Source: Nitrospiraceae bacterium
Lineage (GTDB): Bacteria; Nitrospirota; Nitrospiria; Nitrospirales; Nitrospiraceae
Length of the DNA: 60,718 nt
Reading direction: 5' to 3'
Assembly: GCA_037442105.1 (NCBI GenBank)
Contig: JBBIQV010000014.1
Coordinates: 1 to 60,718 of the forward strand
The notes under the pieces are model-generated. The model was not told the origin of the DNA. It searched no databases and was given only the letters and a program-made list of their open reading frames with translations. Positions 2,503 to 46,205 of the stretch are shown here, piece after piece. Each line of letters begins with the position of its first letter. Position 1 is the first letter of the stretch. Made by a program: the position numbers and the translations under genes.

Positions 2503-3642
<1,140 letters not shown>

Positions 3643-3653
<11 letters not shown>

Positions 3654-5339: not shown

Positions 5340-5436
5340 GTCGACGTGAACCCAAGCTCCTTTACGTTGGCGGCAACCTGCCTGCCGACGCCTTGGCCTG
5401 TCTGCCGGACAGGCGGGCGCAGGCAAGTGGCGGCTT
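5336..5436 (-). repeat. Degenerate third copy of the HsdM tail, interrupted by a palindromic repeat
   Basis: Removing 5377-5427 (51 nt) restores AAA GCC GCC ATT GCC GCC AAC GTA AAG GAG CTT GGG TTC = KAAIAANVKELGF, versus [13 protein letters not shown] in hsdM. Confidence 0.75.
5377..5427. repeat. Nested CCTGYCTGC...GCAGGCAGG-family palindromic (REP-like) element
   Basis: Outer CCTGCCTGC (5377) / GCAGGCAAG (5427) around an inner GCCTGTCTGCCGGACAGGC. Relatives at 5484-5506, 6350-6391 and 39227-39253. Confidence 0.75.
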
Positions 5437-5463
5437 TCCACAACACCCGGCGTACTTCCGCGC

Positions 5464-25171: not shown

Positions 25172-25172
25172 C

Positions 25173-26480: not shown

Positions 26481-26491
26481 AGACGCACGCC

Positions 26492-26947
26492 ATGAGCGCC
26501 CCGCCTCACACAAGAACGCGTTGGCCGTGGGCGCTCGTGATCGCGTTCGCCCTCTCGTTTCTCTCTGCCGTCGTCCACGCCGAGCCCATCGCCGTCATCG
26601 TCAACAAGAAGAACCCCGCACAGCAACTGACGGTAGGGCAGGTCGCCGCCATCTATCGGGGAGAGGACTTGCACTGGCCCAACGGGGAACGGATCAAGAT
26701 CGTCAACAGAGAAATCACCGCGGGGATCAGGGCGGAATTCTACCGCCAGGTGCTGAACGCCAAGCCTGATCAACCCTACTATCACCCCAACACGCCGGTC
26801 CCCATCCAGAATCTCATCGAGCGATCGGATGAAGGTGTGATGCGCTTCGTCGGGACCATCGAAGGCGCGATCGGATACGTGAGAGCGTCTAAGCTCAACG
26901 ACGGGGATCCTACCGTCAAGGTGATTTTGATCATCGACAGCCGATAA
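26492..26947 (+). CDS. Small PstS-like substrate-binding protein
   Basis: IAVIVNKKNP..LT..QV..IY.G...W...V.FVG...GAIGYV. Confidence 0.75.
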   Translation: MSAPPHTRTRWPWALVIAFALSFLSAVVHAEPIAVIVNKKNPAQQLTVGQVAAIYRGEDLHWPNGERIKIVNREITAGIRAEFYRQVLNAKPDQPYYHPNTPVPIQNLIERSDEGVMRFVGTIEGAIGYVRASKLNDGDPTVKVILIIDSR

Positions 26948-26957
26948 CGACGGGAAC

Positions 26958-29549: not shown

Positions 29550-29652
29550 TGAAAGAGAACCGGTTTTCTCACACTGGGATGGACCTTTCGTTTACGACGC
29601 CTGATTGTATCCGTCTAAATAAGCGGCACCGTGCTTCTGAGGATGCACCAGT

Positions 29653-30333
29653 ATGCGGATCTTAGTAGTTGAAGACGACGAGCGGATTTCAAGTTTCGTG
29701 AAACGCGGCCTTGAGGCCGAAGGCTACCTGGTCGATATCGTCCAAGACGGCCAGGAAGGGATTCAGAAGGGCATGGACCCCTATGACGCGATCATCCTCG
29801 ACCTTCTGCTTCCCGGAAAAACCGGCCACGATGTCTGCCAAGCTCTGCGCCATGAGCAAATCCAAACCCCGATCTTGATCCTGACGGCGAAGGACGCGCT
29901 TCAAGACAAAATCCGTGGCTTCGACTATGGAGCGGACGATTATCTCACTAAGCCCTTTGCCTTCGAGGAGCTGCTCGCCCGCATCAAGGCTCTGCTCCGG
30001 CGTAAGTCGTACAAGGAGTCGCCTGCAGAGCTGAAGGTGGCCGATCTCACGCTGAATCGTGACTCCCGCGAGGTTCGCCGCGGGACCAAGGTCATGGCCT
30101 TGACCCGGAAGGAATTCGACCTGCTGGAATTCTTGATGTCCAATCCCAACAAAGCGTTAAGCCGCGTGTCTCTTCTCGAACATGTCTGGGGATATCATTA
30201 CGACACGCTGACCAATGTCGTCGATGTCTACATCGGGTATCTTCGGAAAAAAGTCGACGGCGGCTCTAAGAAAAAGCTGATTCAGACCGTGCGGGATTTC
30301 GGATACAAGATCTCCGAACACCAATCCTCCTGA
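29653..30333 (+). CDS. OmpR/PhoB-family response regulator
   Basis: REC domain plus winged helix (LTRKEFDLLEFL, VDVYIGYLRKK, IQTVRDFGY). Confidence 0.95.
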   Translation: MRILVVEDDERISSFVKRGLEAEGYLVDIVQDGQEGIQKGMDPYDAIILDLLLPGKTGHDVCQALRHEQIQTPILILTAKDALQDKIRGFDYGADDYLTKPFAFEELLARIKALLRRKSYKESPAELKVADLTLNRDSREVRRGTKVMALTRKEFDLLEFLMSNPNKALSRVSLLEHVWGYHYDTLTNVVDVYIGYLRKKVDGGSKKKLIQTVRDFGYKISEHQSS

Positions 30334-30377
30334 CCCCCATCTCCATCGGGCCCCTTCTCGCGCCTGTTTTATCCCAT

Positions 30378-30416
30378 TTCTTAACAACTTCTCATGTCGT
30401 TCTCATTCGGCTCTTA
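30378..30416 (+). promoter_or_regulatory. Four 11-bp-periodic direct repeats, candidate OmpR/PhoB-family operator
   Basis: TTCTTA (30378), TTCTCA (30389), TTCTCA (30400), CTCTTA (30411), upstream of the PilZ-glycosyltransferase operon. Confidence 0.65.
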
Positions 30417-30471
30417 CCTTTTTCGTTTAGGCTAGCCGCCTATCAGTTTTCGGAAAACACGGTCCGACGTC

Positions 30472-31035
30472 ATGGCGAACTCCCCGACACATTGCATACG
30501 TTCTTGTGGGCAGCAACGGAGCAGCGTCCTGACCGTGCCACCTTGCACGCGTTGCGGCGAAACATTTGTGCGGCACATGCCCACCGGCGGGCTGGTCGAT
30601 CACCTGTTGGCATTCGCGCGCATCACCTCTTTCCGCTGTCAGGTCTGTACCAATCGTTTCAGGACATTCCAGTGGCAGGCTCGCGCAAGGCAAGCGTCTG
30701 ACTCGCGCCAGTATCAACGCATCCCGGCCAATGTCCGTGCGACGTTTTTCGATGGACGGACGATTCGAAAGGGAGGAATGGTCGCTCTCTCGATGGGAGG
30801 TTGTACCATGAAAGTCGGCGCACCCTTGCCGCAAGGAGCGTTCATAGAGCTTTGGATGTGGCCGCCGGACCAGATCATTCCGATCAGGGTCAGCGTGGCC
30901 ATGGTCCGCTCGGTCCGGTCGACATCCGTCGGTCTCCAGTTCCTGGAGTTCACGCCCGGAGAGCAGGGTCGGCTGAGCCGATTCGTGCATAACCTGTTAC
31001 GCCGCCAACTCGTCGTGACGGAAGCCGGAGCGTAG
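30472..31035 (+). CDS. PilZ-domain protein with an N-terminal CxxC/CxxC segment
   Basis: CTRC...CQVC, then RQYQR (RxxxR), LSMGG and GLQF. Confidence 0.75.
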   Translation: MANSPTHCIRSCGQQRSSVLTVPPCTRCGETFVRHMPTGGLVDHLLAFARITSFRCQVCTNRFRTFQWQARARQASDSRQYQRIPANVRATFFDGRTIRKGGMVALSMGGCTMKVGAPLPQGAFIELWMWPPDQIIPIRVSVAMVRSVRSTSVGLQFLEFTPGEQGRLSRFVHNLLRRQLVVTEAGA

Positions 31036-31112
31036 TGAGCCCACAGCAATTCATGCAGGAGGACTTGCCATCATTTCAGTTCTCCCAACTTCTTATGGAG
31101 GAGGGACATACG

Positions 31113-31508
31113 GTGCGTATCCTACTTGTGGAAGACGATGAGTGGATCGTCGGTTTCATGAAGCGCGGACTTGAAGCTGAAGAATATGAGGTGGACCTCG
31201 CTTCGGGAAAAGCTCAGACCCTCGATCTGACCGAATCCCGCACCTACGACGTCATCATCCTGGACATCTTTCTGGGACCGGATGACGGGCTTGACATCTG
31301 CCGGACTCTTCGGCGGCGATCGGTGGAAACTCCCATTCTGGTCATGACGGCCAAGGATTCCGCAGAGACCATAAAGGCGAGCGCGGAAGCCGGCGCGAAC
31401 GCGTACCTTCCGAAGCCCTTTCTGTTCGAAGAACTCTTGGTGACGATCAAGCGTCTTCGCGAGTCTTCTGTGTCTTCTGATTCCCTGAAAGAAGTCCAGG
31501 CAGAATGA
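31113..31508 (+). CDS. Single-domain response regulator (receiver only)
   Basis: RILLVEDD...IILD...TA...KPF with no output domain; GGAGGAGG RBS. Confidence 0.85.
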   Translation: MRILLVEDDEWIVGFMKRGLEAEEYEVDLASGKAQTLDLTESRTYDVIILDIFLGPDDGLDICRTLRRRSVETPILVMTAKDSAETIKASAEAGANAYLPKPFLFEELLVTIKRLRESSVSSDSLKEVQAE

Positions 31509-31659: not shown

Positions 31660-32871
31660 ATGAAAAGACTCCTCATCTATTCCCACGACACCTTCGGTCT
31701 CGGAAATATCCGGCGGGTACTGGCGATCTCCACCTATCTGCTCGACGCAATCCCGGACTTGTCGATTCTCATCGTGACCGGGTCCCCCATGATCCATAGC
31801 TTCCGGATTCCGAAGCGGCTTGATTACATCAAGCTCCCTTGCCTCAGCCGAACGGAGCGGGAGGGGTACTCGGCAAAATATATCGAGTCGAGCACGAGCG
31901 AGATCGTTCGCATGAGGGCCGGTCTGATCCTGTCGGCAGTGATCAACTTTGCGCCGGACGTCATGCTCATCGACAAAAAACCTTACGGCGTCAAGCACGA
32001 ATTGAAAGAAGCCCTTGCGATGGTGAAGGCCTATCTTCCCAAAACCAAGCTCCTCCTGCTCCTCCGGGATATCCTCGATACACCGGCGTCAACCTCGAAG
32101 GTATGGAAGGAAAACGGATACTACGAAGCCGTAGAAACCGCGTACGATCTCGTCCTCGTTCTTGGTAAGCCGGAAATCTTCGATCCTCGAAGCGAGTACG
32201 ACTTCCCGATATCGGCCGCAGGAAAAGTCGAATTCTGCGGATACCTTCGCCCCCAGGCACCGCTCAAAAACCGGGAAACGATCAGGCAGGAGCTTCACGT
32301 AGGGGACGATGAACGACTCATCCTCGTCACCGCAGGCGGGGGAGAAGACGGATATGCGCTTCTCGACACCTATGCCATGGCCTTGAAGCACATCTCTCCT
32401 GGGATGCGCGCTCACAGCTTGATCGTGTCCGGACCCGAGATGCCGGAGCCGCAACGGACCATGTTGAGCCGATTGGTGTCGGGGTACCCCAAGGCCAACA
32501 TGCTTGAATTCACCAACGACCTCCTGAGTTACATGAACGCCTCCGACCTCGTCGTCGCGATGGGAGGCTACAACACCGTCTGTGAAATTCTGAGTCTCAA
32601 GAAACGCGCGATTATTGTGCCTCGCGTCAGGCCGGTGGAGGAACAATGGATCCGCGCCGAACGCATGGCGCGCATGGGACTTCTGACCACCATTCATCCG
32701 GACTCGTTGAATCCGGACGACTTGCTCCGCACGATTCTGACGGAACTTGGTTCCGAGCCGCCTGCGCGTCCTTCCATGGATCTGGCCGCGCTTCCCACGC
32801 TCACGAGTTACGTCTCAATGATGCTGAACGGCAAGCATGACCCGGCCCAACCTCATTGCATCTCTCACTAA
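31660..32871 (+). CDS. COG4671-type glycosyltransferase (GT28-like C-terminus)
   Basis: IYSHDTFGLGNIRR, LVTAGGGEDG, MGGYNTVCE, EQWIRA. Confidence 0.85.
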   Translation: MKRLLIYSHDTFGLGNIRRVLAISTYLLDAIPDLSILIVTGSPMIHSFRIPKRLDYIKLPCLSRTEREGYSAKYIESSTSEIVRMRAGLILSAVINFAPDVMLIDKKPYGVKHELKEALAMVKAYLPKTKLLLLLRDILDTPASTSKVWKENGYYEAVETAYDLVLVLGKPEIFDPRSEYDFPISAAGKVEFCGYLRPQAPLKNRETIRQELHVGDDERLILVTAGGGEDGYALLDTYAMALKHISPGMRAHSLIVSGPEMPEPQRTMLSRLVSGYPKANMLEFTNDLLSYMNASDLVVAMGGYNTVCEILSLKKRAIIVPRVRPVEEQWIRAERMARMGLLTTIHPDSLNPDDLLRTILTELGSEPPARPSMDLAALPTLTSYVSMMLNGKHDPAQPHCISH

Positions 32872-32885
32872 CGGTGACGCACGGC

Positions 32886-34160
32886 ATGAAGACGAACACG
32901 CAGACAGTGGGGTATCTCCTCAAGACCTTTCCCAAGGTCTCGGAGACCTTCATCCTCAATGAAATCCTGGGCCTGGAACGGCAGGGAATCGCCCTTGAAA
33001 TATTCTCTCTTTGCCGTCCCGCCGACAGCGAATTCCACTGTGTGTCGGCGCAGGTCCAGGCTCCGGTCCGCTACCTTCCCTACGGCCTCTCGCGTTGGGC
33101 GCTGCCCGCTCTGAAAGCCCACGTCCGCCTGTGCCGTCGAGACCCCCGGCGGTATGCCAAGGCCGTCCGGTCTATCGCCGGACGGAAGGAAGGCTTGACG
33201 GTTTTCAAGTTTCTCAAGGCCGGCTATCTCGCCGCCTTGCTTGAGGAACGTGGTATTCAGCACCTGCACGCGCACTTTGCCAACGTTCCCGCAACCATGG
33301 CCGAGCTCGTCCATCTCCTGACCGGGCTCCCCTTCAGCTTCACGGCTCACGCCAAGGACATCTATCTATCGGATCCCGACATACTGAATCGGAAAATTCA
33401 CCATGCCGAGTTCGTCGTCACCTGCACGGAGTACAACCGCGCCTTTCTCCAAAATATCTCCACCAACGGCACTCCCATCCATCGCGTCTATCACGGGCTC
33501 GATCTGGACCGATTTCAACCTGCCGGCTCCGCCGGCCCGGAAGGGGGACAGTCCCTGGTCGGGACAGTCCCCGCCGGTGCCTGTCCCCATGTTCCAATGC
33601 TGCTCAGCGTCGGCCGCCTGAGAGAGAAAAAAGGCTTTCCTGTCCTTCTGCAGGCCTGCCGAATCCTCAAGGACCGAGGATACCGATTTCGCTGCCAGAT
33701 CGTCGGGTATGGACCGCTCCAACCGGAACTCGAACGCCTGATTCGAGCCCTCGATCTCACGGACCACGTATTCCTCCTGGGCAAGAAACCTCATACCGAG
33801 GTACTGGCCCTGTACCGGCAAGCCACGGTGTTCGTGCTGCCGTGCCAAATCACGAGCGATGGGGATCGAGACGGCATCCCGAATGTGCTGCTGGAGGCCA
33901 TGGCGATGCAGGTGCCGGTTGTCTCGACCGACATTTCCGGAATCCCCGAACTCATTGATCACATGACCAACGGGTTGACGGTGCCGCCGGAAAATCCGGA
34001 GGCCCTCACGCAGGCTCTCGCTCGGCTCCTGGACAGGCCCGACCTTCGGGTCGCGCTTGGGCGGGCAGGCCGCGACAAGGTCTCCGAACGGTTCGCTCAC
34101 TCATGCGCCACCGCGACCCTTCAAACCCTCTTCACCGGAACATGCGAGGTGTCGCGATGA
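32886..34160 (+). CDS. GT4 glycosyltransferase (WcaL-like)
   Basis: FPKVSETFI, HLHAHF, TAHAKDIY, DRDGIPNVLLEAMA. Confidence 0.9.
   Translation: MKTNTQTVGYLLKTFPKVSETFILNEILGLERQGIALEIFSLCRPADSEFHCVSAQVQAPVRYLPYGLSRWALPALKAHVRLCRRDPRRYAKAVRSIAGRKEGLTVFKFLKAGYLAALLEERGIQHLHAHFANVPATMAELVHLLTGLPFSFTAHAKDIYLSDPDILNRKIHHAEFVVTCTEYNRAFLQNISTNGTPIHRVYHGLDLDRFQPAGSAGPEGGQSLVGTVPAGACPHVPMLLSVGRLREKKGFPVLLQACRILKDRGYRFRCQIVGYGPLQPELERLIRALDLTDHVFLLGKKPHTEVLALYRQATVFVLPCQITSDGDRDGIPNVLLEAMAMQVPVVSTDISGIPELIDHMTNGLTVPPENPEALTQALARLLDRPDLRVALGRAGRDKVSERFAHSCATATLQTLFTGTCEVSR
33544..33588. repeat. GGGGACAG..CTGTCCCC REP-like element in frame in the GT4 gene
   Basis: Encodes GQSLVGTVPAGACP. The 16-mer GCCGGTGCCTGTCCCC also occurs at 52420-52435 and, reverse-complemented, at 56349-56364. 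Confidence 0.8.
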
Positions 34161-35524
34161 CACCGATTGAAACTGCCGGCGCCTCCCGAAGGTCAGTCGG
34201 CACGCACGAGCCGAAGGTCGAGGTTCCATCCTTGGAAGGTGTGCGCAGCTTCCTCCATGCGCAGCTTGTCGCTCAAGGCACGCTTCGGAACCTCAGCCTC
34301 CGGCGCGCCTGGGTTGATCCTGTTCAAGGGTTGCGGCTCCTGTACCAGGGATGGAACGCGGACGACTCAGCAGCCATCCTCTGCGCCGCTGAAACTCTGG
34401 ACCCATCGGTCGGCTTCAAAGAAGCAGAAAGGCTCAATCGACAATTTCGAGAGAGAGCAGCCGATCCGTCGAGACCGCGAGCGCAAGCCGCCGCCTATTC
34501 ACCCGATCTCGGACTGATCTTTACCATGTTTCCCATCGATCGCCATCTGACATCGCTCAGCAGGGCAATAGACCCGCGGTTGATGAAACCGGTCCTGGAA
34601 ACCCGGCTCGACCAGGCCGCATTGCCGCATCGCCTCAGCCAGATCGCCATCGGACCGGTTCAATACAAACCGGGTCGGAAGTGCATGCTGGAGTATCGCC
34701 TGGAATGGGAAACCCCGGCCGACCGAAGGGAACTGCCGCCACTGGTCTATGGCCGTGTGTCGCGCCACGCGAGACGAGCCTATACGACTCTTCAGGCCTT
34801 GCGCGAGGCATCCTCCGAACACGCGTTTCGCTTTCCCCAACCTGTGGCCCTGATTGAGGACCTTGAACTGGAGTTGATAGGCCACCTCCCAGGACGGCCT
34901 CTTTCCCGACTGTGTCATGACCCGGACTTTCCTCGCTGGTGTGGAGCAGCCGGCGAGGGACTGGCGGAGTTCCACCGCGCTCCTGTCGTGCTGGAGAGAC
35001 GGGCGAGTGAGCCCCTCGACCCGGCACGAATCGAGCAGTGCGCTGCACGCTTGGCCGAGGAGTTGCCTGAGTACGGACCCCGCATCCGATCCGTCGCGCA
35101 GGCCATCTCCCGGAGGTTCGCCGGCGCTGACGGGCTACTCAGCCCCGTTCATGGCGACTTTCACCCCGGCAACATCTTGGTCGACGAAAGCCGGCTTGGT
35201 CTGTTGGATTTTGAAGCCTGCGGGATGGGTCAGCCCGAAAGCGATGTGGGATTTTTTTGCGCCGAGCTCACGTTGCTGTCGCTCAAAGAATTCGGCGAGA
35301 CCGGCGCATTGGATGCCGGCCTTCGCGCATTCATCGAGGCCTACAGGCGTACCGCCACCGGCGCTTACATAGGCGATCTGGGCGCCTATGCCGCCGCAGC
35401 CTGTCTATGGTGCGCCGATTACCAATGCCTCAGGCGCCCCGAAGCGGCCGGTTGGCGAGAGCGCGCCCAAGCCATGGTCGAGGCAGCCGGCCGGCTGGCC
35501 CAAGAGGACCCAACAGGATGCTGA
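34157..35524 (+). CDS. Aminoglycoside-phosphotransferase-like kinase
   Basis: YKPGRKC, HGDFHPGNILV, LLDFE. Confidence 0.8.
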   Translation: MTPIETAGASRRSVGTHEPKVEVPSLEGVRSFLHAQLVAQGTLRNLSLRRAWVDPVQGLRLLYQGWNADDSAAILCAAETLDPSVGFKEAERLNRQFRERAADPSRPRAQAAAYSPDLGLIFTMFPIDRHLTSLSRAIDPRLMKPVLETRLDQAALPHRLSQIAIGPVQYKPGRKCMLEYRLEWETPADRRELPPLVYGRVSRHARRAYTTLQALREASSEHAFRFPQPVALIEDLELELIGHLPGRPLSRLCHDPDFPRWCGAAGEGLAEFHRAPVVLERRASEPLDPARIEQCAARLAEELPEYGPRIRSVAQAISRRFAGADGLLSPVHGDFHPGNILVDESRLGLLDFEACGMGQPESDVGFFCAELTLLSLKEFGETGALDAGLRAFIEAYRRTATGAYIGDLGAYAAAACLWCADYQCLRRPEAAGWRERAQAMVEAAGRLAQEDPTGC

Positions 35525-36855
35525 GAAAGGCCACCGTGACAGACGCCATGCCGATCAGCGCACCAACCATTGCCGACTTCCGGGATCCACGGCTCCCAGG
35601 CCTTTCCCTGCTCCTGGATCCCGAAGCCATGAAGAACACGTTCGCCGAGAGTTTTTTTGAACAAGCCGCCGGGCAATCCGACGATCGGTTGCAGTGCCGT
35701 CTTCTTTCCGCATGGTACAGCCCTGGAAAGCAGTGCCATGCGCTCTACGAAATCACGTGGCCTGATCGCGCCGATCGGCGGCTCCTTGTCGCCCACACGA
35801 ACAGCGCGCGTGGCCATCACCCGCTCCCTCGCCTGCTCAGAACAGCCGGCGTTCAACATATCGCCAGACAGGGGGTCTGGCTCTGGGGATTTCCGAACGA
35901 TCCTGCGCTACCCTGGCTCGCTTGTTTGACCGATTCGGACACGCTCAAATCCGTCATCCCCTATGCTATCGGCGCAACATCGCGCGAGTATCACGTGGAA
36001 GTCTTACGCTATGCGCCGCTGAAGCGGTGCGCGCTCCGCCTGGCCCTCTCCTCTACCACACAAGAGCCTCAGGAGGTGCTCGTCGCCAAGATAGACGTCA
36101 ACGGCGCTCCAGCCAAAGCCCACGCGGTGATGACGCAGCTCTGGGAGCATCGCCTGAGAGGAGATCGGCGCTATGAAGTCGCCGAACCGTTAGGGGACTC
36201 CCCCGCCGGCGGGTTTCTCTGGCAACGCTGGTGTCCGGGCGAGCGGTTCGCAGATGCGGCCAAGCGCCTGGGGCTTCTTCGAGCCACCCGCTTGGCCGCC
36301 GAGGCTCTGGCGGATCTTCACCAAGCCCCCATCGAAGGATTGTCCCGGCGCACGGCGGCCGAGGACCAGGCCAAGCTGACACACCGCGCCCGCGTGCTGG
36401 CGGAATTTCACCCGAGCCTGACCGAGCCCGTGCGTCGCGTCGCGTCGCGCTTGGCCGAATCAGCGATCTTCTCGGACTCCTCAGTCGTCGTGCCTCTCCA
36501 CGGAGATTTCAACGATGGGCAACTGCTCATTCACCACGAGCGGCCGATCGTGCTCGATTTTGACGCCTGCGCCTTGGGCGACCCTCACTACGATCTTGGG
36601 CACTTCATCGCGGGCCTCTACCGCCTGGTCCGCAGCGGCATCGTGTCCGAGTCGGACCTGCGCTCGGCCGAGGCCGAGTTCCGGGACACCTACCAGTCCA
36701 ACGTGCCGTGGCACGTCTCCCGGACACGCTTGGAACATGTTGTCGCGCTGGCTCTGATCTGCCGGCGGGCACACAAGGCCCTCCGCAGGCTGGAACCGGG
36801 AGCCGTCGAATCCATTCGGACCTATGTCGCTCACGCCGAAGCGCATCTCGGCTAA
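35518..36855 (+). CDS. Second APH-like kinase
   Basis: FPNDPALP, RYAPLKRC, HGDFNDGQLLI, VLDFD. Confidence 0.8.
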   Translation: MLRKATVTDAMPISAPTIADFRDPRLPGLSLLLDPEAMKNTFAESFFEQAAGQSDDRLQCRLLSAWYSPGKQCHALYEITWPDRADRRLLVAHTNSARGHHPLPRLLRTAGVQHIARQGVWLWGFPNDPALPWLACLTDSDTLKSVIPYAIGATSREYHVEVLRYAPLKRCALRLALSSTTQEPQEVLVAKIDVNGAPAKAHAVMTQLWEHRLRGDRRYEVAEPLGDSPAGGFLWQRWCPGERFADAAKRLGLLRATRLAAEALADLHQAPIEGLSRRTAAEDQAKLTHRARVLAEFHPSLTEPVRRVASRLAESAIFSDSSVVVPLHGDFNDGQLLIHHERPIVLDFDACALGDPHYDLGHFIAGLYRLVRSGIVSESDLRSAEAEFRDTYQSNVPWHVSRTRLEHVVALALICRRAHKALRRLEPGAVESIRTYVAHAEAHLG

Positions 36856-36872: not shown

Positions 36873-37988
36873 ATGTCACAGATACAGGTCTCCACCGATC
36901 CGGAAAACCATCTGATTCAGATCAAGCCGGCAGGGGGTACCCACCTCCATGCCAAACGGGAGGAAGTGCATGCTGAGAAAGGCTTGCGGACGATGAGCCT
37001 TGCGCCGAACGAGGAGGGCCTCTATTCGAAAAAGTTCATGATCGAGCCGACGAGCCTCTGCAACCTCAAGTGCCCCCTCTGCCCGGTGCCGAGCCACCTG
37101 CACCGGCCCACCGGTCACATGACGATGGAGACCTATAAACATGCGATCGACAGCATTGCCGGCTATGCCAAGAAGGTCGATCTCTGGAATTTCGGGGAAC
37201 CGTTCCTGAACCCCGAGTTATTCGACATGATCCGGTACGCCGAAGACCGCCGGATCAAGGTGCGCGTCAGCACCAACTCCACGTTCCTGAGCGCCGAGGA
37301 GATCGACAAGATTTTCTGGTCCAATCTCAGCTCCATCATCGTCTGCCTCGACGGCGCCAGCAAGGACACGCATGAACGGTATCGCATCGGCAGCGAGTTC
37401 GAAAAGGTCGTCGAAGGTATCCGGGCGCTGGCCCGGAAGAAGCGCGCCCTGGGACGGGAGCGACCGTTCATCCGGCTCCAGTTCCTCGTGTTCAGCTACA
37501 ACGAGCATGAGATCGACGACATTATCGCTCTGGCGGAAGAGATGCAAGTGGACCAGCTCTCGTTGAAAAACCTCTCGCTGGGGACCTGGATCGGAGAGAG
37601 TATCCGGCAAAGCATCGGGAGGAAGCTGCTGCCGAAGGATGAGAAATTCCGCAAGTATCGCGTGGAAGCCAACAACTTTGAACTGAAGGCGCAGGACGAG
37701 GTCTGCAGTTGGGCCTATGCCAACGGCGTGGTCTTGGCCAACGGCGATGTGACCACCTGCTGCTACGACAGCAGCGGCGACCATGCGTTTGCGAACGTCC
37801 ACAAGGACGGCGGGTTGATGCAGATTCTGAAAAGCGACGCCATGAAGAAGGTACGGGGGCAGATCATCGCGCGGGAGCTGGCTCTCTGCAAGACCTGCCA
37901 GTACAGCGATTACGGAGCGACGCACATTAATTTCGAGTACCGGCCGGACACGGTCATCACCGGCGCACCAGCGCCGACACCCAACTAA
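36873..37988 (+). CDS. Radical SAM enzyme with a SPASM/Twitch auxiliary-cluster domain
   Basis: CNLKCPLC, FGEPFL, STN; C-terminal C...NGDVTTCCYD...CKTC. Confidence 0.9.
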   Translation: MSQIQVSTDPENHLIQIKPAGGTHLHAKREEVHAEKGLRTMSLAPNEEGLYSKKFMIEPTSLCNLKCPLCPVPSHLHRPTGHMTMETYKHAIDSIAGYAKKVDLWNFGEPFLNPELFDMIRYAEDRRIKVRVSTNSTFLSAEEIDKIFWSNLSSIIVCLDGASKDTHERYRIGSEFEKVVEGIRALARKKRALGRERPFIRLQFLVFSYNEHEIDDIIALAEEMQVDQLSLKNLSLGTWIGESIRQSIGRKLLPKDEKFRKYRVEANNFELKAQDEVCSWAYANGVVLANGDVTTCCYDSSGDHAFANVHKDGGLMQILKSDAMKKVRGQIIARELALCKTCQYSDYGATHINFEYRPDTVITGAPAPTPN

Positions 37989-37999
37989 GGAGCAACACA

Positions 38000-39199
38000 A
38001 TGGAACGACAGGAATACCTTGAGCGAGCAGGCCGTCACATCTTCTATTCGGAGCCGATCGATGTCGGCGCCCAACTCTGCCTGGAGAACCTGAGATACGG
38101 CGTCGCGAAGATGCACGCCGTGCAGGAACAGCTCGGGTTCAAACCCGACGCCACGTTCGTGGCGTCTCCCGACTGCACCATCACGGTCAACGAGTACCGC
38201 TGGAATACGGGATTCGGCTACGGCGGGAAGCTGGCCTGGGGAGACGGTGATTCCGACCTCGTCTTTCTGGAAACCAAGCCCAACTGTTGCGGGATGCTGG
38301 TGGGAGGGCTCCGGACTCTCCCCGCGAAAGAGACCGTGATGAACCGCGCGGTCAGGATGAAGCAAGAACGCTGTGAAGTGGACGGCATCAAGATCAAGTG
38401 GAACCTGGAAAAAGGCAACCACTTCGTGGACGTGTTCGAAGTGCGGCCGCTGAGCCCCGAGCCGAAACTTCCGCCCTACGCCTTCATGCTCCATACGTCC
38501 GGGAGCGAGCTCAAGAAGGAGACGAAGCTCGGACCGGGGCTCTACATCGACTCCAGCGAAACCTTGAATCAGATGGCCGAGTACATCGACACGCCGTTCG
38601 GCCGATCGCCGATTCTCACCGGCACGAAGGCGAAAGACTACTACGACTTCTACAAGGTCGCGGACGACTTCGCTCACCGCCGGCGCATTCGGGCCGGTGA
38701 ACTACTGTTCGAGGACTTCGAGCTGATCGTGGACGCCACCCACCAAGGGCTGACCGATCAGAACGCCATTGCGTTGGGGACGAATACGCTCCACCTCGGT
38801 CATGGGAGTAGGTTTTTCCCCCTCGCGCTTCAGCCGGACCTGCCGTCCTACTTGATGGAAGGATTCCAGAATTACACGCCGGCCACCATCGACCAAATCG
38901 GGTGGACCAAGCGAGCGACGGAGTTGGGGGTCACTCACCGGCTGCTGGGAGCGGACTTGCTGCCTCACGGAGCGGGGTACAACTTCCCCCAACTCGATAA
39001 AGTCGTCAAGGTCCATGAATTAGACGGCAAACGCGTGTTCGAAGTGAAATCCAGACGGGGAAAAGGAGTGGAACTCATCGGCGACTTTTCAAACCTGCCC
39101 TTCGAGTACCGCGGCGAGGAAATTCTCAAGCGGACGGAGGAACTGGGTTTAGGTCGCGCGGTGGCGGCGCTCATCCCGGTGTATGTGTTCAAAATCTAG
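38000..39199 (+). CDS. Divergent RtcB-fold protein
   Basis: RtcB-like motifs in order: SPDC..GFGYGG, PNCCGM, GNHFVD, LHTSGS, THQ, PHGAGY, LPFEYR, LIPVYVFK. Confidence 0.7.
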   Translation: MERQEYLERAGRHIFYSEPIDVGAQLCLENLRYGVAKMHAVQEQLGFKPDATFVASPDCTITVNEYRWNTGFGYGGKLAWGDGDSDLVFLETKPNCCGMLVGGLRTLPAKETVMNRAVRMKQERCEVDGIKIKWNLEKGNHFVDVFEVRPLSPEPKLPPYAFMLHTSGSELKKETKLGPGLYIDSSETLNQMAEYIDTPFGRSPILTGTKAKDYYDFYKVADDFAHRRRIRAGELLFEDFELIVDATHQGLTDQNAIALGTNTLHLGHGSRFFPLALQPDLPSYLMEGFQNYTPATIDQIGWTKRATELGVTHRLLGADLLPHGAGYNFPQLDKVVKVHELDGKRVFEVKSRRGKGVELIGDFSNLPFEYRGEEILKRTEELGLGRAVAALIPVYVFKI

Positions 39200-39271
39200 G
39201 GGACCGGCCCCCTTCCTGCGCGTCTTCCTGTCTGCGTGCAACGCACAGGCAGGCGCGCGGGGCCTGTCCCC
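39199..39271. repeat. Composite nested palindrome (two REP families)
   Basis: GGGGACCGGCCCC ... GGGGCCTGTCCCC encloses CCTGTCTGCGTGC-aac-GCACAGGCAGG. Confidence 0.7.
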
Positions 39272-39312: not shown

Positions 39313-40173
39313 ATGCCGAAAACCCGAAGCTTGACTGAAATCAACGATCGGCTCATCGAGGGTTCTACCGTCCTCGAAACCACGCTGTCGGAGATGCTGG
39401 CCAGGCGAAGTCCTCTGAAGGTCCTGGAAGTCGGCTTCGGCCATGGACGCGCGTTGATGGAACTCGCCTGGAAGTTCCGCGACGCCCCCATCAGCTTCTA
39501 TGGGATCAACAAAAAACCCGCCAGAGCGATGCGTGAGCGCGAGGACTTGCTCGAAACGGCGCGGCTGTACCACATCGTTCCCGACCACGAACCGGCCACC
39601 ATCACGTTGCCTAACGTGTCTTTCTACGACGCGACGCGCCTGCATTTCGAGGACTCGAGTCTCGATGTGATTTACTCGGCGGTCTCGCTTCGGTTCTTCG
39701 AGGACAAGGCAACCTTCCTGGAAGAAGTCGCTCGAGTCCTGAGACCGGGGGGAACAGCCTTGCTCGACTTCAGCGAACTCCCTTGGGATCATCCCCATAC
39801 CCTGACGCGCGACCATACGCTCTTAACCCCGGCCTTGAGCCATTTTGTGCTCATGTACGGGAATGAACTGATTCCCGTTTCATCCTACCTCAAGCTGTTC
39901 GAAGACCACGCATTTGAGTGGCGCTTTCTAAGGAAGGACCGCTTCACGCTCTCTGCGCGGAAGTTGAAACCCGGACGCTTGGATCTCAAACTGGCGTTCA
40001 ATGCGGCGCTCAGCCGCCCGATGCGGGAACTTTCTCATCAACATCAAGAAATCCTTGGGAAGGAGAAAGGAGGGTTCCGCAGCGTGTACGACATCCATCC
40101 GGATGTGTATCGCGCCTTGTGCGAGCGCGGACTCCTCTCCCGAGAACAGGTGTGCGCCGTGACGAAGGACTGA
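39313..40173 (+). CDS. Class I SAM-dependent methyltransferase
   Basis: VLEVGFGHG, DATRLHFEDSSLDVIYS, RVLRPGG. Confidence 0.85.
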   Translation: MPKTRSLTEINDRLIEGSTVLETTLSEMLARRSPLKVLEVGFGHGRALMELAWKFRDAPISFYGINKKPARAMREREDLLETARLYHIVPDHEPATITLPNVSFYDATRLHFEDSSLDVIYSAVSLRFFEDKATFLEEVARVLRPGGTALLDFSELPWDHPHTLTRDHTLLTPALSHFVLMYGNELIPVSSYLKLFEDHAFEWRFLRKDRFTLSARKLKPGRLDLKLAFNAALSRPMRELSHQHQEILGKEKGGFRSVYDIHPDVYRALCERGLLSREQVCAVTKD

Positions 40174-40202: not shown

Positions 40203-42263
40203 ATGCTGAACCGATGGTCTGATCAGGCCGCTGAAAAGTTAGAGGGGCTTGACCTGCTGGTATACACCACTCGGCTGATCGGAGCCGAGCCGGAATTGGT
40301 GGTGTGGGGCGGCGGCAATTCGTCCGTCAAGACCGTCACGGCCGATCATCGAGGGCAGGAGACCAGGGTCCTGTGGGTCAAAGGCAGCGGCTCCGACATG
40401 CGCACCATCACCGCGCAGCACTTCACGCCTCTTCGCTTAGACGACCTGCTGTTGTTGCGGGATCGGACGGCTATGACCGATGAAGAGATGGTGGACTATC
40501 AATCTCGTTGCCTGCTGGCTCCGCACGCGCCGAAACCATCCATCGAAACGTTGCTTCACGCCTTTCTCCCGGCCCCCCACATCTACCATACGCACCCGGA
40601 CATGATCTGCGCCCTGACCAACGTGTCGGACAGCTCCACCGTCATCAAACGCGTGTTCGGGGAGCATGTCGCGCTGATTCCGTATCGGCGGCCCGGGTTT
40701 GCGCTGGCGAAACTGGTCGGCGAAGCCTTTCTCATAACTCCGGGCCTCCGGACCATCATCCTGGACAAACACGGGCTGATCACCTGGGGAGACACCGCCA
40801 AGGAGGCCTACCTGAACACCATCCACATGGTCAGCGAGGCGGAGTCTTTTATTCAGCACGCTCTCAACGCTCACCCTTGGCCCCGGAGGGAGCCAAAGCT
40901 CAAATTCTCAATCGATGAACGGCACGAGCGAGCGGCAGCGGTCGCCCTGGCGCTCAGGAGAGCCATCAGCCGGCAGAAACGTATGCTGGTAGCCTTTGAT
41001 GATCAATCAGATGTCCTGCACTTCCTTGACGGCGATCTGGCAAAAGCATCATCCCAGGTCGGCCCGCTGACGCCGGATCACATCCTGCACACCAAACCGA
41101 AGCCGCTCTTTCTTGATGTCCTTCCATCCGATTCACCCGGCGCAATCGGAGGGGTCGTGGAACAGGCGGTCGAAGCCTACCGTTGCGGCTATCAGCAGTA
41201 TTTCGAACGGCACAAGACGCCGGAGACCGTGATGCAGGATCCCAATCCTCGGGTGATCCTGGTTCCAGGCCTCGGGCTGTTCACCTCCGGCAAGGACCGG
41301 CGGGCCTGCCGCATCGCGCACGATCTCTACCTGCACACCATGAAAACCATGATCGCCTCATCGGCGATCGATACCTACACCACGCTGTCGCTGAAGGAGT
41401 ACTTTGAATTCGAATATTGGCCCTTGGAAACTTATAAGCTGACGCTGTTGCCGCCGGAGAAAGAGCTGTCGCGGCGCATCGTCCTGGTCACCGGCGCTGC
41501 TGGTGCCATCGGAAAGGCCGTTGCCGCCCGGTTCGCGGCGGGCGGCGCCGCGGTGATCCTGACGGACATCGACCAAGTAAAGATCGAAACTCTCTCCGCC
41601 GAACTCAATCACCAATTCGGTGAAGAAGTCACTAGGCCCATCGTCATGGATGTGCGCGATGAGACCAGCGTCGCGCAGGCCTTTCATCGGGCTGTGCTCG
41701 CATATGGAGGAGTGGATATCTGCGTCTCCAATGCCGGGATTGCCCGATCGGGATCGGTTGAATCCCTTTCGCTGGTCGATTGGGAGGATTCCCTGGCCGT
41801 GAACGCTACCGGCCATTTCCTCGTCTGCCGCGAGGCCATGCGCCTGTTTCGCCGGCAGGGGCTCGGCGGCAACATCGTGGTGGTCGCCACCAAGAACGTG
41901 CTCGCCCCCGGCAAGGAATTCGGCGCCTATTCGGCATCCAAAGCGGCGCAGGCTCAGCTTGCGCGAGTCTTAGCCCTGGAAGGCGGCGAGTGGGGCGTTC
42001 GGGTCAACATGGTCAACCCCGATGCGGTGCTGGACGACTCCGGTCTCTGGTCACAAGCCATGCGCCGGGCTCGCGCGCAGGCATACGGGATTCAGCCGGA
42101 GGAATTGGAGCGCTACTGCATCGCCCGCAATCTCTTGAAGGTCAAGATTACCGCCCAGGATGTGGCCGAAGCCGTGCTGTATCTGGCATCCGACCGATCG
42201 GCCAAAACGACCGGCGCCATGATTCCCGTGGACGGGGGCGTGAAGGAAGCATTTCCGCGATGA
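40203..42263 (+). CDS. rhaD: Bifunctional rhamnulose-1-phosphate aldolase / short-chain dehydrogenase
   Basis: GGGNSSVK, VKGSG, PSIETLLH, HTH, PDH, EYW.LE; SDR domain TGAAGAIG, NAG, YSASK. Confidence 0.88.
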   Translation: MLNRWSDQAAEKLEGLDLLVYTTRLIGAEPELVVWGGGNSSVKTVTADHRGQETRVLWVKGSGSDMRTITAQHFTPLRLDDLLLLRDRTAMTDEEMVDYQSRCLLAPHAPKPSIETLLHAFLPAPHIYHTHPDMICALTNVSDSSTVIKRVFGEHVALIPYRRPGFALAKLVGEAFLITPGLRTIILDKHGLITWGDTAKEAYLNTIHMVSEAESFIQHALNAHPWPRREPKLKFSIDERHERAAAVALALRRAISRQKRMLVAFDDQSDVLHFLDGDLAKASSQVGPLTPDHILHTKPKPLFLDVLPSDSPGAIGGVVEQAVEAYRCGYQQYFERHKTPETVMQDPNPRVILVPGLGLFTSGKDRRACRIAHDLYLHTMKTMIASSAIDTYTTLSLKEYFEFEYWPLETYKLTLLPPEKELSRRIVLVTGAAGAIGKAVAARFAAGGAAVILTDIDQVKIETLSAELNHQFGEEVTRPIVMDVRDETSVAQAFHRAVLAYGGVDICVSNAGIARSGSVESLSLVDWEDSLAVNATGHFLVCREAMRLFRRQGLGGNIVVVATKNVLAPGKEFGAYSASKAAQAQLARVLALEGGEWGVRVNMVNPDAVLDDSGLWSQAMRRARAQAYGIQPEELERYCIARNLLKVKITAQDVAEAVLYLASDRSAKTTGAMIPVDGGVKEAFPR

Positions 42264-42306
42264 TGGAGAGTTGCGCCTTATCCAACGTGAAGGAGGCAGG
42301 CTTCCT

Positions 42307-44346
42307 GTGAACCCAACAGACTCAGACCGGAAGAAGAGAGTGCTGTTCTATTGCCAGCACCTGCTGGGAATGGGCCACCTGATCAGAAGCCTCGCAATTC
42401 TGGAGAAGCTGAGGGACTTTGAGGTCCGATTCATCAACGGCGGCGAAGTGGCCTCGGACATCGAGGTACCGTCCTTCGTTCAGGTCGTGAATCTGCCGCC
42501 CTTGCATTCGAAACCTGATCTCAAGGGGCTTCACACGGCCAGTGACTCCGCAAGCCTGGACACGGTGAAAGAAATCCGGAGAAGGCTGCTTCTCGACGAG
42601 TTTGAGCGATTCCAACCTCACGCGTTGGTGATCGAGCTGTTCCCATTTGGAAGGAAACAGTTCGCCTTCGAACTCATTCCCGTATTGGCGAGAAACCGCT
42701 TGAACGGCAAACCGACCACCGTCGTCTGCAGCCTCCGGGATATCCTGGTCAGCAAAAGCGACCCGACTCGCCATGAGGAGCGGTGCGTGCGGTTCGTGAA
42801 CCGGTATTTTGACGCAGTCCTCGTGCACTCCGACCCTACGTTTCAGATACTCGACGAGACGTTTTCGAGGACGGCCGATCTCGAATGTCCGATCCGGTAC
42901 ACCGGATTCGTCGCGCGGGAGGTCGGGCCCGCGCAGCCGCAGGCCGGCGAGCAAGCTTCCGTCGGAGATCCGGAGACCCCGGTGATCCTGGTGAGCGTCG
43001 GAGGTGGACGCGTCGGGTACGAACTGGTCGCATCATCGATCCAGGCCAGTTCTATCCTGTACGCCGCGCTCCCCCACCGCCTGCTGGTGTTTACTGGACC
43101 GTATATGCCGGAGACGCACATTGCGAGCCTCGAGCAACTTGCCGCGGGCCGGACACATGTGATACTTCGGCGATACACGGCAGAGTTCCCCTCTCTGTTG
43201 GAAAAGGCCGACCTTTCAATCTCTATGGCCGGTTACAACACCTGTATGGACCTCCTCACGACCGGAGTTCGGGCGCTGGTGCTGCCATTCACCGCCCAAG
43301 GGAACGATGAGCAAATCATGCGGGCCCAAAAATTGGAGCGCCATGGGATAGTGACCGTCCTTGACCCTGTTGATCTTGAGCCCCACACCTTGGCTCAGAA
43401 GATGGCTTCTCTCCTCCGGTCGGATCGGCCGGACCCCACGGTAGGCCTCGATACTAACGGCGCGCAACAAACCGCCGATCTCATCGCAAAACTGCTCACC
43501 CATCACGACGCGCCAGGCTTGCAGATCTCGGAGGGGGCTGTCTCCGTTCACACCCCACCCTGGCGGCAGAGGTTGGAGGCATTTCTTGAGCAACAACGTG
43601 AAACCGGGTCCGAGGTGATGCATCTCTTCCTGCGCGATGACGATGTGGACGAGGATGAAGAGTCCTTGCGCCGGCTGTTGGATATCACCGTCTCCCGATG
43701 GATCCCGGTCAATCTCGAAATTATCCCCGGCAGGCTGACGGAATCCGGCATCACAGTATTGGACACCTATGCGCGTTCCCTCCCGGGACTGTTCGAACTC
43801 CATCAGCACGGCTGGCAACATGCGAATCACGAGCCAGAGGGGAAGAAATGCGAGTTCGGGCCCAGTCGCCCATTTCATGAGCAACTTGACGATATCCGAA
43901 AGGGCAAGGAACTGCTCGACAGGGTGTTCAAAGGTTTGGTTTACCCAGCCTTCACGCCGCCCTGGAACCGATGCACGCCCGATACCTACAAGGCTCTCGA
44001 TGACTTGGGCTTCCTCGTCCTGTCGAAGGACCACGCGGTACAGCCGATGACCGGTTACCGGTTTCGCGAACTCTCCACGACCTTGGACCTCTATCGGTGG
44101 AAAGGCGGCCCCGCCATGAAAGCCCCGGACGAGATCGTCACCGTACTGATCCAACAACTGGCGGACGGCCTGAGCCCTATCGGCCTGCTCTTGCATCACA
44201 AGGTCATGGACGATGCCGCCTTTTCCTTTCTGGACGACTTGCTGGCCGTCCTGGCGGCTTCACCGCTCATTCGCTGTCATTCGTTCCACGGCCTCATGGC
44301 GGAACTTGAACGACAGGACCTTCAACTCCAAGGAGTCCGACCGTGA
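42307..44346 (+). CDS. COG4671-type glycosyltransferase fused to a polysaccharide-deacetylase-like domain
   Basis: YCQHLLGMGHLIR...SMAGYNT, followed by FLRDDD, HQHGWQH.NH, FTPPWNR and GLLLHH. Confidence 0.85.
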   Translation: MNPTDSDRKKRVLFYCQHLLGMGHLIRSLAILEKLRDFEVRFINGGEVASDIEVPSFVQVVNLPPLHSKPDLKGLHTASDSASLDTVKEIRRRLLLDEFERFQPHALVIELFPFGRKQFAFELIPVLARNRLNGKPTTVVCSLRDILVSKSDPTRHEERCVRFVNRYFDAVLVHSDPTFQILDETFSRTADLECPIRYTGFVAREVGPAQPQAGEQASVGDPETPVILVSVGGGRVGYELVASSIQASSILYAALPHRLLVFTGPYMPETHIASLEQLAAGRTHVILRRYTAEFPSLLEKADLSISMAGYNTCMDLLTTGVRALVLPFTAQGNDEQIMRAQKLERHGIVTVLDPVDLEPHTLAQKMASLLRSDRPDPTVGLDTNGAQQTADLIAKLLTHHDAPGLQISEGAVSVHTPPWRQRLEAFLEQQRETGSEVMHLFLRDDDVDEDEESLRRLLDITVSRWIPVNLEIIPGRLTESGITVLDTYARSLPGLFELHQHGWQHANHEPEGKKCEFGPSRPFHEQLDDIRKGKELLDRVFKGLVYPAFTPPWNRCTPDTYKALDDLGFLVLSKDHAVQPMTGYRFRELSTTLDLYRWKGGPAMKAPDEIVTVLIQQLADGLSPIGLLLHHKVMDDAAFSFLDDLLAVLAASPLIRCHSFHGLMAELERQDLQLQGVRP

Positions 44347-46205
44347 ACACGATCGGCGCCGTTCGCTTCCGACAAATCCTGAAAGCCCAGATGGGCCGGA
44401 TGAAGGGCAGCTTGTGCCTCGCGGCCTTGTGCCTCCTCGGCGTCACTCTGACTGAGCTTTTGGCACCGTGGCCGCTGAAACTGATCTTTGACTACATTCT
44501 TTTAGCCAAACCCCTTCCTGCCTCCTTCTCCTTCCTTCACGATATCGTGCAGGCGGGACCGGCCATTTCCCTGACCGTCCTCTCGCTCTCCATCGCCGCC
44601 ATCGCCGCCCTCAACGGGGGCTGTTCCTACGGACAGATCTATGTGACCTCGAAAGTCGGGTATTGGCTCGTGTACACCATCCGGCGCGAGCTGTTCTCGC
44701 ACCTCCAACAGCTTTCTCTCTCTTTTCACAACCGCGCCCAATCCGGCGAGCTACTCACCAAACTGGCCGGCGATACGACGACGCTGCGGGAAGTCTTCAC
44801 CGACTGGGCTCTCACGACGACCGCTCATGTGCTGACCGTCCTGGGCATGTTCGTCATCATGTTTCTGGTGAATTGGAAGCTGAGCCTCCTGGTTGCCGCC
44901 ACCTTTCCGCTGCTGCTGGCGGTCCTGTACGTGCTCAACCGGAAAATCAAGAAGAGCGTGCGCACGCAGCGCAAACAAGAAGGCCGAATCGCCACGCGGA
45001 TCACTGAAGTCATGTCGTCGATCGCGCTGGTCCAAGCCTTCGGCCGCATGGAGTATGAAGAAGATCGGTTTGAGGCCGAAAGCAGCCGGCACTTGGCGGC
45101 GGGCATTCAAACGGCCAGGGCGCGGGCTGCGGTCACAAAGACGGTGGCCTTGATCAGCGCCCTTGGTACCACAGGCACGGTCCTCTTCGGCGCATGGCAG
45201 GTTCTTGCCGGGGTCATGACCCCGGGAGATCTGCTCATCTTCGTCGCGTATTTGAAAGGCCTCTACAAGCCCGTTCGCGACCTCGCCAACCTGTCGGCCA
45301 AATTTTCGCGAGCGATGGTCAGCGTCGAGCGGATCAGCGAATTGCTGAGCTACGAACCGGAGATTTGCGACATCCCTCACGCCGTTCGTGCTTCCCGCCT
45401 CGCCGGAGACGTCCGGTTCGAGGACGTGTCGTTCGGATATGGCACAGACAAGAAGGTTCTCCACCACGTGTCGTTCCATATTCGCCCGGGCCAACGGGTG
45501 GCCTTGGTCGGAGTCTCCGGAGCCGGCAAATCGACGATCGTGAACCTGCTTCTTCGACTCTACGATCCACAGGAGGGCACTATCCGCGTGGATGAGATCC
45601 CGCTCACCGGCTACAATCGTGAGTCCCTCCGACGCGAAATCGGCATCGTGCTCCAGGATACCGTGCTGTTCGGCGCGAGCATTCGAGAGAACATCTCCTA
45701 CGGGAAGCCCGAAGCGACGTCGCAGGAAGTCGAGGAGGCCGCTCGCTTGGCCCATATTCACGACTTCATTACGGCGTTGCCGAACGGCTACGAGAGCCTG
45801 GTGGGTGAGCGCGGTTGCACCTTATCGGGTGGCCAGCGGCAGCGGATTTGCCTGGCTCGGGCGCTCCTCAAACAACCGTCGATCTTGATCATGGACGAAC
45901 CGACTGCGGCGCTGGATGCGATTTCGGCGTTTCAGATTCGTGCCATCATCGCGCGCGCCCAGAAAGGCAAAACAACCATCGTGATTTCTCACCAATTCTT
46001 CGCCATGGACCAGTTCGATCAGATCCTGGTCCTCGATCGCGGCTCGCTGGTTGAGCAAGGCACGCACGCGCAACTGCTGGCCAGGCAAGGCCTGTATGAG
46101 CGCCTGTTTCGGCAGCAGATGACGACGCTACAGTTCACCCATGAAGAGGATGCGTTGAGATCGCTCGAACATGAAGCTGAGAAGGAGACCAAGAATCATG
46201 CTTAA
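44343..46205 (+). CDS. ABC exporter (fused TMD + NBD)
   Basis: Six-TM-like N-half; GVSGAGKS, LSGGQRQR, IMDE. Confidence 0.93.
   Translation: MNTIGAVRFRQILKAQMGRMKGSLCLAALCLLGVTLTELLAPWPLKLIFDYILLAKPLPASFSFLHDIVQAGPAISLTVLSLSIAAIAALNGGCSYGQIYVTSKVGYWLVYTIRRELFSHLQQLSLSFHNRAQSGELLTKLAGDTTTLREVFTDWALTTTAHVLTVLGMFVIMFLVNWKLSLLVAATFPLLLAVLYVLNRKIKKSVRTQRKQEGRIATRITEVMSSIALVQAFGRMEYEEDRFEAESSRHLAAGIQTARARAAVTKTVALISALGTTGTVLFGAWQVLAGVMTPGDLLIFVAYLKGLYKPVRDLANLSAKFSRAMVSVERISELLSYEPEICDIPHAVRASRLAGDVRFEDVSFGYGTDKKVLHHVSFHIRPGQRVALVGVSGAGKSTIVNLLLRLYDPQEGTIRVDEIPLTGYNRESLRREIGIVLQDTVLFGASIRENISYGKPEATSQEVEEAARLAHIHDFITALPNGYESLVGERGCTLSGGQRQRICLARALLKQPSILIMDEPTAALDAISAFQIRAIIARAQKGKTTIVISHQFFAMDQFDQILVLDRGSLVEQGTHAQLLARQGLYERLFRQQMTTLQFTHEEDALRSLEHEAEKETKNHA

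Follow-up and report, generated by a model that had tools for sequence, protein, structure and literature searches.

Gene organization of the locus

The window, by which we mean the whole stretch of DNA that was analysed, comprises 60,718 nt of contig JBBIQV010000014.1 (GCA_037442105.1) from a Nitrospiraceae bacterium. It encodes a 399-residue protein of RtcB fold among genes for glycosyltransferases, phosphotransferases, a radical SAM protein and an exporter (Table 1). The RtcB-like gene begins with ATG, its AAGGAG ribosome-binding site overlaps the stop codon of the radical SAM gene, and re-reading of the sequence confirmed the co-orientation and the 11-nt gap that the initial annotation gave for this pair. 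The second phosphotransferase is likely to start at the ATG at 35518, which overlaps the preceding stop codon, in a reading frame that is open from 35257. The methyltransferase, also proposed as a close partner, turned out to be separated from the RtcB-like gene by 113 nt and to be missing from all six orthologous loci, and is therefore no conserved partner of it. Methyltransferase and aldolase together were rejected as core partners on the same absence from six of six loci. No rtcA, archease, RtcR or TROVE gene was found when the 44 open reading frames of the window were scanned against Pfam, in agreement with the initial annotation. Between 36.5 and 40.5 kb there is neither a promoter-like site nor a surplus of terminator-like sites.

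Several other features of the window were recorded. A co-oriented upstream block (24551-31508) encodes an unannotated beta-barrel-like protein, a periplasmic binding protein, a PAS histidine kinase, two response regulators and a PilZ protein, and is a possible regulator of the cassette. At 992-7565 a DUF4062/RecG-C gene and a fragment of a reverse transcriptase (Pfam RVT_1, E 1e-8) are interleaved with the M and S genes of a type I restriction-modification system, and the lower-GC contig end (57022-60060) carries a ParE-type toxin gene and an N6/N4 DNA methylase.

Table 1. Features of the window around the RtcB-like gene
Feature	Position	Strand	Remarks
GT28-C-like (GT-B) glycosyltransferase	31660..32871	+	Cassette backbone
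GT4 glycosyltransferase	32856..34160	+	Best NCBIfam match EpsE, below cut-off
APH-family phosphotransferase 1	34103..35524	+	PF01636 E 9e-21; HGDxxxxN and DFE motifs
APH-family phosphotransferase 2	35518..36855	+	PF01636 E 4e-17
Radical SAM/SPASM protein	36873..37988	+	Fixed upstream partner of the subclade
RtcB-fold protein	38000..39199	+	399 aa; structure model, fold matches, residue alignment
Short imperfect palindrome	39227..39253	+	In the 113-nt downstream gap; 3 genome copies at 3 mismatches or fewer
SAM methyltransferase	39313..40173	+	Window-specific; absent from 6 orthologous loci
RhaD-like class II aldolase/short-chain dehydrogenase	40203..42263	+	TIGR02632 over cut-off; window-specific
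GT28-C-like glycosyltransferase fused to DUF2334/deacetylase-like domain	42271..44346	+	Downstream in 5/5 loci extending there
MsbA-like ABC exporter	44343..46205	+	Cassette backbone

Relationship of the 399-residue protein to RtcB

The initial annotation had recognized a divergent RtcB-like enzyme from short motifs, and a motif scan recovered these in the order claimed: PD (57-58), KPNCCGM (93-99), GNHF (139-142), LHTSGSE (164-170), THQG (247-250), PHGAGY (322-327), PxxY (367-370) and PxxxxK (393-398). The same scan bore out the lack of HRKGA and DIxC and the tyrosine after HGAG. The protein has no match above the cut-off of Pfam PF01139 or NCBIfam, and searching PDB, Pfam and NCBIfam with its sequence alone gave no match. 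Among 120 family members, nine match PF01139 weakly (best E 0.036), and a search with a family profile returned P. horikoshii RtcB as its sole match (E 0.28). Profile-profile comparison with RtcB gave a probability of 4.9% with a narrow alignment and 94% (E 1e-7) once the alignment was broadened; the residue mapping below follows this profile alignment, not model coordinates.

The fold is clearer from structure comparison. An AlphaFold2 model built from 120 homologs (pLDDT 95, pTM 0.93) was compared with known structures, and all 12 Foldseek rows at E of 3e-6 or less, among the matches listed, are RtcB. VIA-align superposed the model on the GMP-bound P. horikoshii enzyme (4dwq) with Z 21.3 and rmsd 3.3 A over 312 residues, and on ten RtcB entries with Z 18.5-21.7 over 301-316 residues at 14-19% identity, other folds reaching 5.3 at most; a wide structure search likewise gave Z 20.6 for RtcB and 5.1 for the next fold. 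From residue 2 to residue 399 the entire chain can be aligned to the fold shared by canonical RtcB (PF01139; P. horikoshii 1uc2/4dwq/4dwr, T. thermophilus 2epg, human RTCB). Only RtcB structures match well, so the fold proposed in the initial annotation stands. An Atlas feature search with a homolog, which serves as a lead only, gave as its third match a cluster with 13% RtcB annotation.

Conserved active site and lost RNA contacts

Numbering was transferred through canonical RtcBs fetched from the phylum and aligned to P. horikoshii RtcB, and conservation was counted in 120 family members, 101 diverse full-length members and 25 canonical RtcBs. Metal site M1 of RtcB consists of Cys98, His234 and His329, and M2 of Cys98, His203 and Asp95 (Jacewicz 2022, PMC9745838). 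The bridging Cys98 corresponds to C97 (120/120 family members; 96/101 diverse members), His203, His234 and His329 to H141, H165 and H248 (120/120; 101/101), and the nucleophile His404 of the HGxG motif to H323 (120/120; 100/101). By this sequence comparison the Cys and His metal ligands and the catalytic histidine appear to be kept, as the motifs had implied. Asp95 is absent at its register, and N95, one residue nearer to Cys97 (Asn in 118/120, Asp in 2/120), probably stands in for the missing aspartate of DIxC as fifth metal ligand, giving N/DxC in the family where canonical RtcB has DxxC. The acceptor Asn202 (N140) is present in 120/120 members, as is D58, the counterpart of Asp65 in RtcB.

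The guanine pocket of RtcB comprises Glu206, Ser385, Glu446, Lys480 and the Ala406-Gly407 backbone (PMC9745838; Kroupova 2021, PMC8668186). Most of it is retained as D144 (99/120), K398 (101/120), D/E/N365 (97/120), Y370 (117/120) and G326 (120/120), with Ala, Ser or Gly at position 283 (Ser385 in RtcB). D144 and K398 vary among the 101 diverse members, and the pocket is weaker in distant members.

Residues that hold the RNA are another matter. The contacts of RtcB to the 5'-OH strand, which include Arg238 (Banerjee 2021, PMC8051266), are Arg238, His242, Arg190, Gln194 and Asn202, of which the family keeps only Asn202. The Arg238 position is occupied by Ser, His, Pro or Gly followed by an invariant Glu, His242 is gone, and the segment bearing Arg190 and Gln194 is deleted, the protein being ~55 residues shorter than RtcB; in the canonical set these RNA-strand residues are each present in 24-25 of 25 proteins (Gln194 in 20). 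Asn330, HRKGA and Arg408 are also replaced: HQ, xxLG and HGxGY occur in 120/120 family members vs HN, HRKGA and HGAGR in 25/25 canonical RtcBs. The latter three motifs have roles in phosphate binding. Family members are acidic, with a median pI of 5.9 vs 8.0 for canonical RtcB, and have invariants of their own (R67, W68, Y74, W80, E170, Y327, R371). With the core kept and the RNA contacts lost, it appears from the sequence that the protein can still guanylylate itself but no longer dock an RNA 5'-OH strand. We considered whether the radical SAM protein might mature the active-site cysteine, as sulfatase maturases do, and rejected this because the CC motif is not specific to the query's subclade (C96 is found in 51/120 members).

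Distribution and paralogy of the family

A single-sequence search collected 166 proteins, and clustering at 50% gave 388 representatives. GTDB yielded 413 stretches, and we fetched the best 80 of these; with 49 metagenome loci they make 129 loci. Partner scoring covered 122 loci, the window among them; two GTDB loci (L014, L073) and five of the metagenome loci, in which the gene was missed by the open-reading-frame calling, are left out of it. The hosts include Chloroflexota, Armatimonadota, Spirochaetota, Planctomycetota, Bathyarchaeia, Woesearchaeota and others. Searches of IMG/VR and of phage and plasmid collections gave no family member. Canonical RtcB is also encoded in 46 of 50 carrier genomes (50 of the 80), including all six subclade genomes, and the RtcB-like protein is thus a paralog of it and no replacement. 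This coexistence, together with the loss of RNA-gripping residues, upholds the separation of the family from canonical RtcB that the initial annotation had anticipated.

Canonical rtcB or archease lies inside the fetched DNA of only one of the 129 loci, and outside that locus no rtcA, rtcR, archease or prfH family was found among the scanned neighbours. In that locus (L046:4215-7995) canonical rtcB and an archease-like gene are convergent to an RtcB-like/HD pair. The genome of the window has rtcA on a different contig (G000:C13:17102-18151), and no rtcB or archease was found in it, probably owing to an assembly gap.

In two distant members from different sources (P0142 and P0371, 743-748 aa) an APH-family kinase precedes a full RtcB-like domain in the same chain, an independent fusion that strengthens the link to kinases proposed for the window. 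Fusions of greater length were not found among 8000 candidates of 780-2225 aa, which is weak evidence, in a size range that lies above the known 743-aa fusion. A literature search found no description of the family or of non-RNA RtcB chemistry, which does not establish absence from print.

Usual partners of the family

A dedicated HD-domain gene lies within 3 kb of the RtcB-like gene in 25 of the 78 scored GTDB loci and is the commonest partner. Other neighbours are ATP-grasp-like (8), AstE/AspA-like (7) and PHP-like (5) genes and a LON-substrate-binding gene on the opposite strand (6), and 32 loci have no scored partner. The glycan cassette accounts for six of the 78, five by scoring of open reading frames and the sixth by tblastn. 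Homologs therefore do occur in contexts unrelated to the glycan cluster, the eventuality that the initial annotation had named as counting against its reading, and with an HD hydrolase as commonest partner the glycan-cluster context fails for the family as a whole.

The HD gene may lie on either side of its RtcB-like partner, and the association recurs in several deep-branching parts of the tree. The HD gene was detected at E<1e-80 in 23 of 50 genomes, all of them among the 44 non-subclade genomes, and a midpoint-rooted FastTree suggests that HD, not glycosyltransferases, is likely to be the ancestral partner. Among 20 genomes of one Spirochaetota class, which are kin and not independent, seven have both genes adjacent, twelve have neither and one has a contig-end fragment. 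The nearest solved relatives of the HD partner are YedJ and YpgQ, the latter a Mn-dependent NTP pyrophosphohydrolase (PMC8177086).

The module of RtcB-like and HD genes (L036:10001-11887 and 24 other GTDB loci) occurs in either order, in bacteria and archaea. Its HD protein forms a distinct YedJ/YpgQ-like subfamily with a GHDYSH motif and no Arg in the usual HxxRV position, and tandem HD pairs occur at L023, L130 and L131. In Chloroflexota (L008:11207-12574, L063:7677-10000, L031, L023) the gene adjoins an AstE/AspA-like hydrolase and an unannotated 455-aa protein that resembles a circularly permuted ATP-grasp ligase by its motifs and a weak glutathione-synthetase match (E 0.02); U32 peptidase genes lie upstream in three of these loci. 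In one clade, beside nusA/infB, a PHP-type gene that we take to be endonuclease-Q-like directly follows the RtcB-like gene (L035:11193-12431, L013, L018, L039, L040).

The query subclade and its cassette

The query belongs to a subclade of 15 tree rows (support 100, stem 0.55) whose context is more uniform. The same radical SAM gene lies directly upstream in all six fetched orthologous loci (72-74% identical), which with the window makes seven of seven readable loci. An APH kinase is present in four of the four loci that reach far enough upstream (counts made with kinase 1 as query), the fused GT28-like/deacetylase gene in all five that reach downstream, the ABC gene in three and an alginate-export porin in four. 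Four further radical SAM orthologues lie on contigs equal in length to those of subclade members, an indirect sign of the same pairing. The initial annotation's expectation of a clade tied to glycosyltransferase, kinase and radical SAM genes thus holds for the subclade and not for the family at large. Five of the six fetched subclade loci come from one phylum, in which the gene is found in 5 of 167 genomes, so that the subclade stands for about three independent lineages. No HD partner was found at E<=1e-10 in the six subclade genomes, which are incomplete; the best match in the genome of the window has E 3e-4.

Two residues also set the subclade apart. R63 (Arg or Lys in 106 of 106 other proteins) and D135 (105 of 106) are replaced in 14 of 14 subclade proteins, by V63 and N135 in the query. 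D135 lies in the loop before N140, a loop that in RtcB contacts the incoming strand.

Neither the RtcB-like gene, sought in 60 host relatives, nor any close copy of the kinase of the cassette, sought in 40, was found, so the cassette has probably been acquired; GC and GC3 do not set it apart as foreign. Its GT28-like/GT4/APH-kinase/ABC/alginate-export-porin backbone is shared with plasmids of Ca. Manganitrophus, from which the RtcB-like gene is absent. Since the cassette exists without the radical SAM/RtcB-like pair, the pair is a tailoring add-on. The pair is 61-74% identical across loci where the backbones are only ~21-43% identical, and the backbone of the window is nearer to the pair-less Ca. 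Manganitrophus cassettes (43-62% identical). Similar pairs on divergent backbones point to re-insertion into the same cassette type and not to hitch-hiking, which suggests that the pair is a mobile tailoring module returning to this cassette type.

In one Ca. Manganitrophus cassette (L182:24079-25711) the slot of the pair is taken by an unrelated radical SAM gene (SPASM, 29%) and a histidine phosphatase, a hint in favour of a hydrolase role. The radical SAM clade comprises ~45 clusters at an identity of at least 62% vs 14 for the RtcB-like subclade, so the radical SAM protein probably often works without the RtcB-like protein. Its tight clade (P0293-P0310) includes Rokubacteria proteins, with a cluster of 111 members to which no RtcB-like cluster corresponds. 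A search of 400 further genomes of the class gave no orthologue of it but three distant matches (30-33%), and no viral locus was found for it. Synechocystis sll1722-sll1726 is presumably of the same cassette type as that of the window. Those genes are reported to act in exopolysaccharide production.

Proposed function and alternatives

The protein may be a Mn- and GTP-dependent histidine nucleotidyltransferase of RtcB fold whose substrate is a small phosphate other than a nucleic acid. H323 would attack GTP on two metals (C97 bridging; H165/H248; H141/N95) to form enzyme-GMP, a step that is likely and well supported by the conserved residues. GMP would then pass to a phosphate monoester made by the APH-type kinases of the cassette on a sugar or polyol, giving X-ppG; this transfer is plausible from the gene context, and radical SAM tailoring perhaps precedes it. 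X-ppG might itself be the product, a GDP-activated donor or cap, which makes up about half of the proposal, or a hydroxyl held at N140 might attack it to leave a phosphodiester or cyclic phosphate on the glycoconjugate that the ABC transporter and porin export. The phosphodiester and the GDP-capped product are equally compatible with the data and equally open. Comparable ping-pong chemistry is known from CobU/CobP and GalT, in which a kinase-made phosphate reacts with enzyme-His-NMP to give an NDP-activated small molecule. Those enzymes resemble the proposed mechanism and differ in fold (P-loop or HIT), and none was among the fold-search matches.

Transfer of His-GMP to a kinase-made small-molecule phosphate, with a GDP-capped or phosphodiester-linked outcome, has in our estimate an even chance of being correct. 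The narrower idea that an old non-RNA branch of RtcB gave rise to a subclade that joins a kinase-made sugar phosphate to a hydroxyl, or cyclises it, with a radical SAM step, is possible and rather doubtful. Radical SAM and RtcB-like genes would form an optional tailoring module, added to a more widespread export cassette of glycosyltransferases and kinases; the subclade would have been drawn from an older family in which an HD hydrolase is the usual partner. Against the proposal stand the usual contexts of the family, which are not glycan clusters, and the cassettes that are complete without the gene. The repurposed fold of the initial annotation therefore survives in outline for the query subclade, where the core is kept, the RNA grip lost and the context one of kinases and glycosyltransferases; as a family-wide reading it does not.

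Alternatively, the family may cap or process non-tRNA nucleic-acid ends without sealing them, the HD protein healing or uncapping the ends and the glycan context being incidental. Capping-type paralogs such as RtcB3 of Myxococcus xanthus, and DNA 3'-capping by E. coli RtcB, are a precedent for stopping at a guanylylated product; they act on nucleic-acid ends and are, presumably, Pfam-detectable RtcBs. Maughan and Shuman are said to have reported in 2015 that canonical-type paralogs cap nucleic-acid ends instead of ligating them. Capping of DNA ends by RtcB and variable capping by Myxococcus paralogs are on record, and the PHP gene, probably endonuclease-Q-like, directly follows the RtcB-like gene at five loci of one clade. 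Moreover, loss of Arg238 in E. coli RtcB slows sealing 200-fold and 3'-guanylylation only 3-fold (PMC8051266), so a capping-only enzyme would fit the residue pattern. We nevertheless consider capping unlikely given the acidic surface with most basic residues lost, the 128 of 129 loci without RNA-repair neighbours, the lack of members in IMG/VR, phage and plasmid collections, and a subclade without HD in a fixed metabolic context. A phosphoesterase, hydrolysing the kinase-added phosphate or a cyclic phosphate at the binuclear site by chemistry of RtcB's cyclic-phosphodiesterase type, would be consistent with the histidine phosphatase in the equivalent Ca. Manganitrophus slot, could replace the HD hydrolase that the subclade has lost, and recalls the hydrolysis of 2',3'-cyclic phosphate by RtcB (Jacewicz 2022, PMC9745838). 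A plain phosphatase would have no need of the conserved guanine pocket and histidine nucleophile, and a separate hydrolase already adjoins the gene in other clades, which makes this explanation quite unlikely.

The HD partner, nearest to YedJ and to the Mn-dependent NTP pyrophosphohydrolase YpgQ (PMC8177086), could also be the eraser of a Gp3N/Gp4N-type dinucleotide made from enzyme-GMP, with the subclade protein regulating the glycan and not building it. The Spirochaetota class in which the two genes are adjacent (7 genomes), both absent (12) or fragmentary (1) accords with such a pair. We regard a signal synthase as improbable, because the subclade has no HD partner and its gene is translationally coupled to biosynthetic genes. 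Finally, the genome of the window, in which rtcA was found and canonical rtcB and archease were not, could be using the protein as a divergent but ordinary tRNA/rRNA ligase in place of an rtcB that 63 of 81 genomes searched in the phylum possess. That genome is 87% complete, and the gene that precedes rtcB in relatives is missing from it as well, which an assembly gap would lead one to expect; the other six subclade genomes all have canonical RtcB, and the RNA-strand residues are lost. An ordinary ligase is thus highly improbable.

Implications for the RtcB fold

The literature examined describes RtcB solely as an enzyme of RNA or DNA ends. A widespread family of paralogs with the catalytic core retained, free of the RNA contacts and invisible to Pfam and NCBIfam, would carry the RtcB fold into metabolism, and the family is found repeatedly beside small-molecule enzymes: kinases, HD hydrolases, ATP-grasp-like ligases and glycosyltransferases. 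Joining of a kinase-made sugar phosphate to a hydroxyl by His-GMP chemistry, if true, would provide a GTP-driven route to glycan phosphodiesters without a CDP-alcohol or NDP-sugar-1-phosphate transferase. The query subclade is the most testable entry into the family: its candidate substrate-making kinases and its export route share an operon, and its two specific residue changes point to the acceptor pocket.
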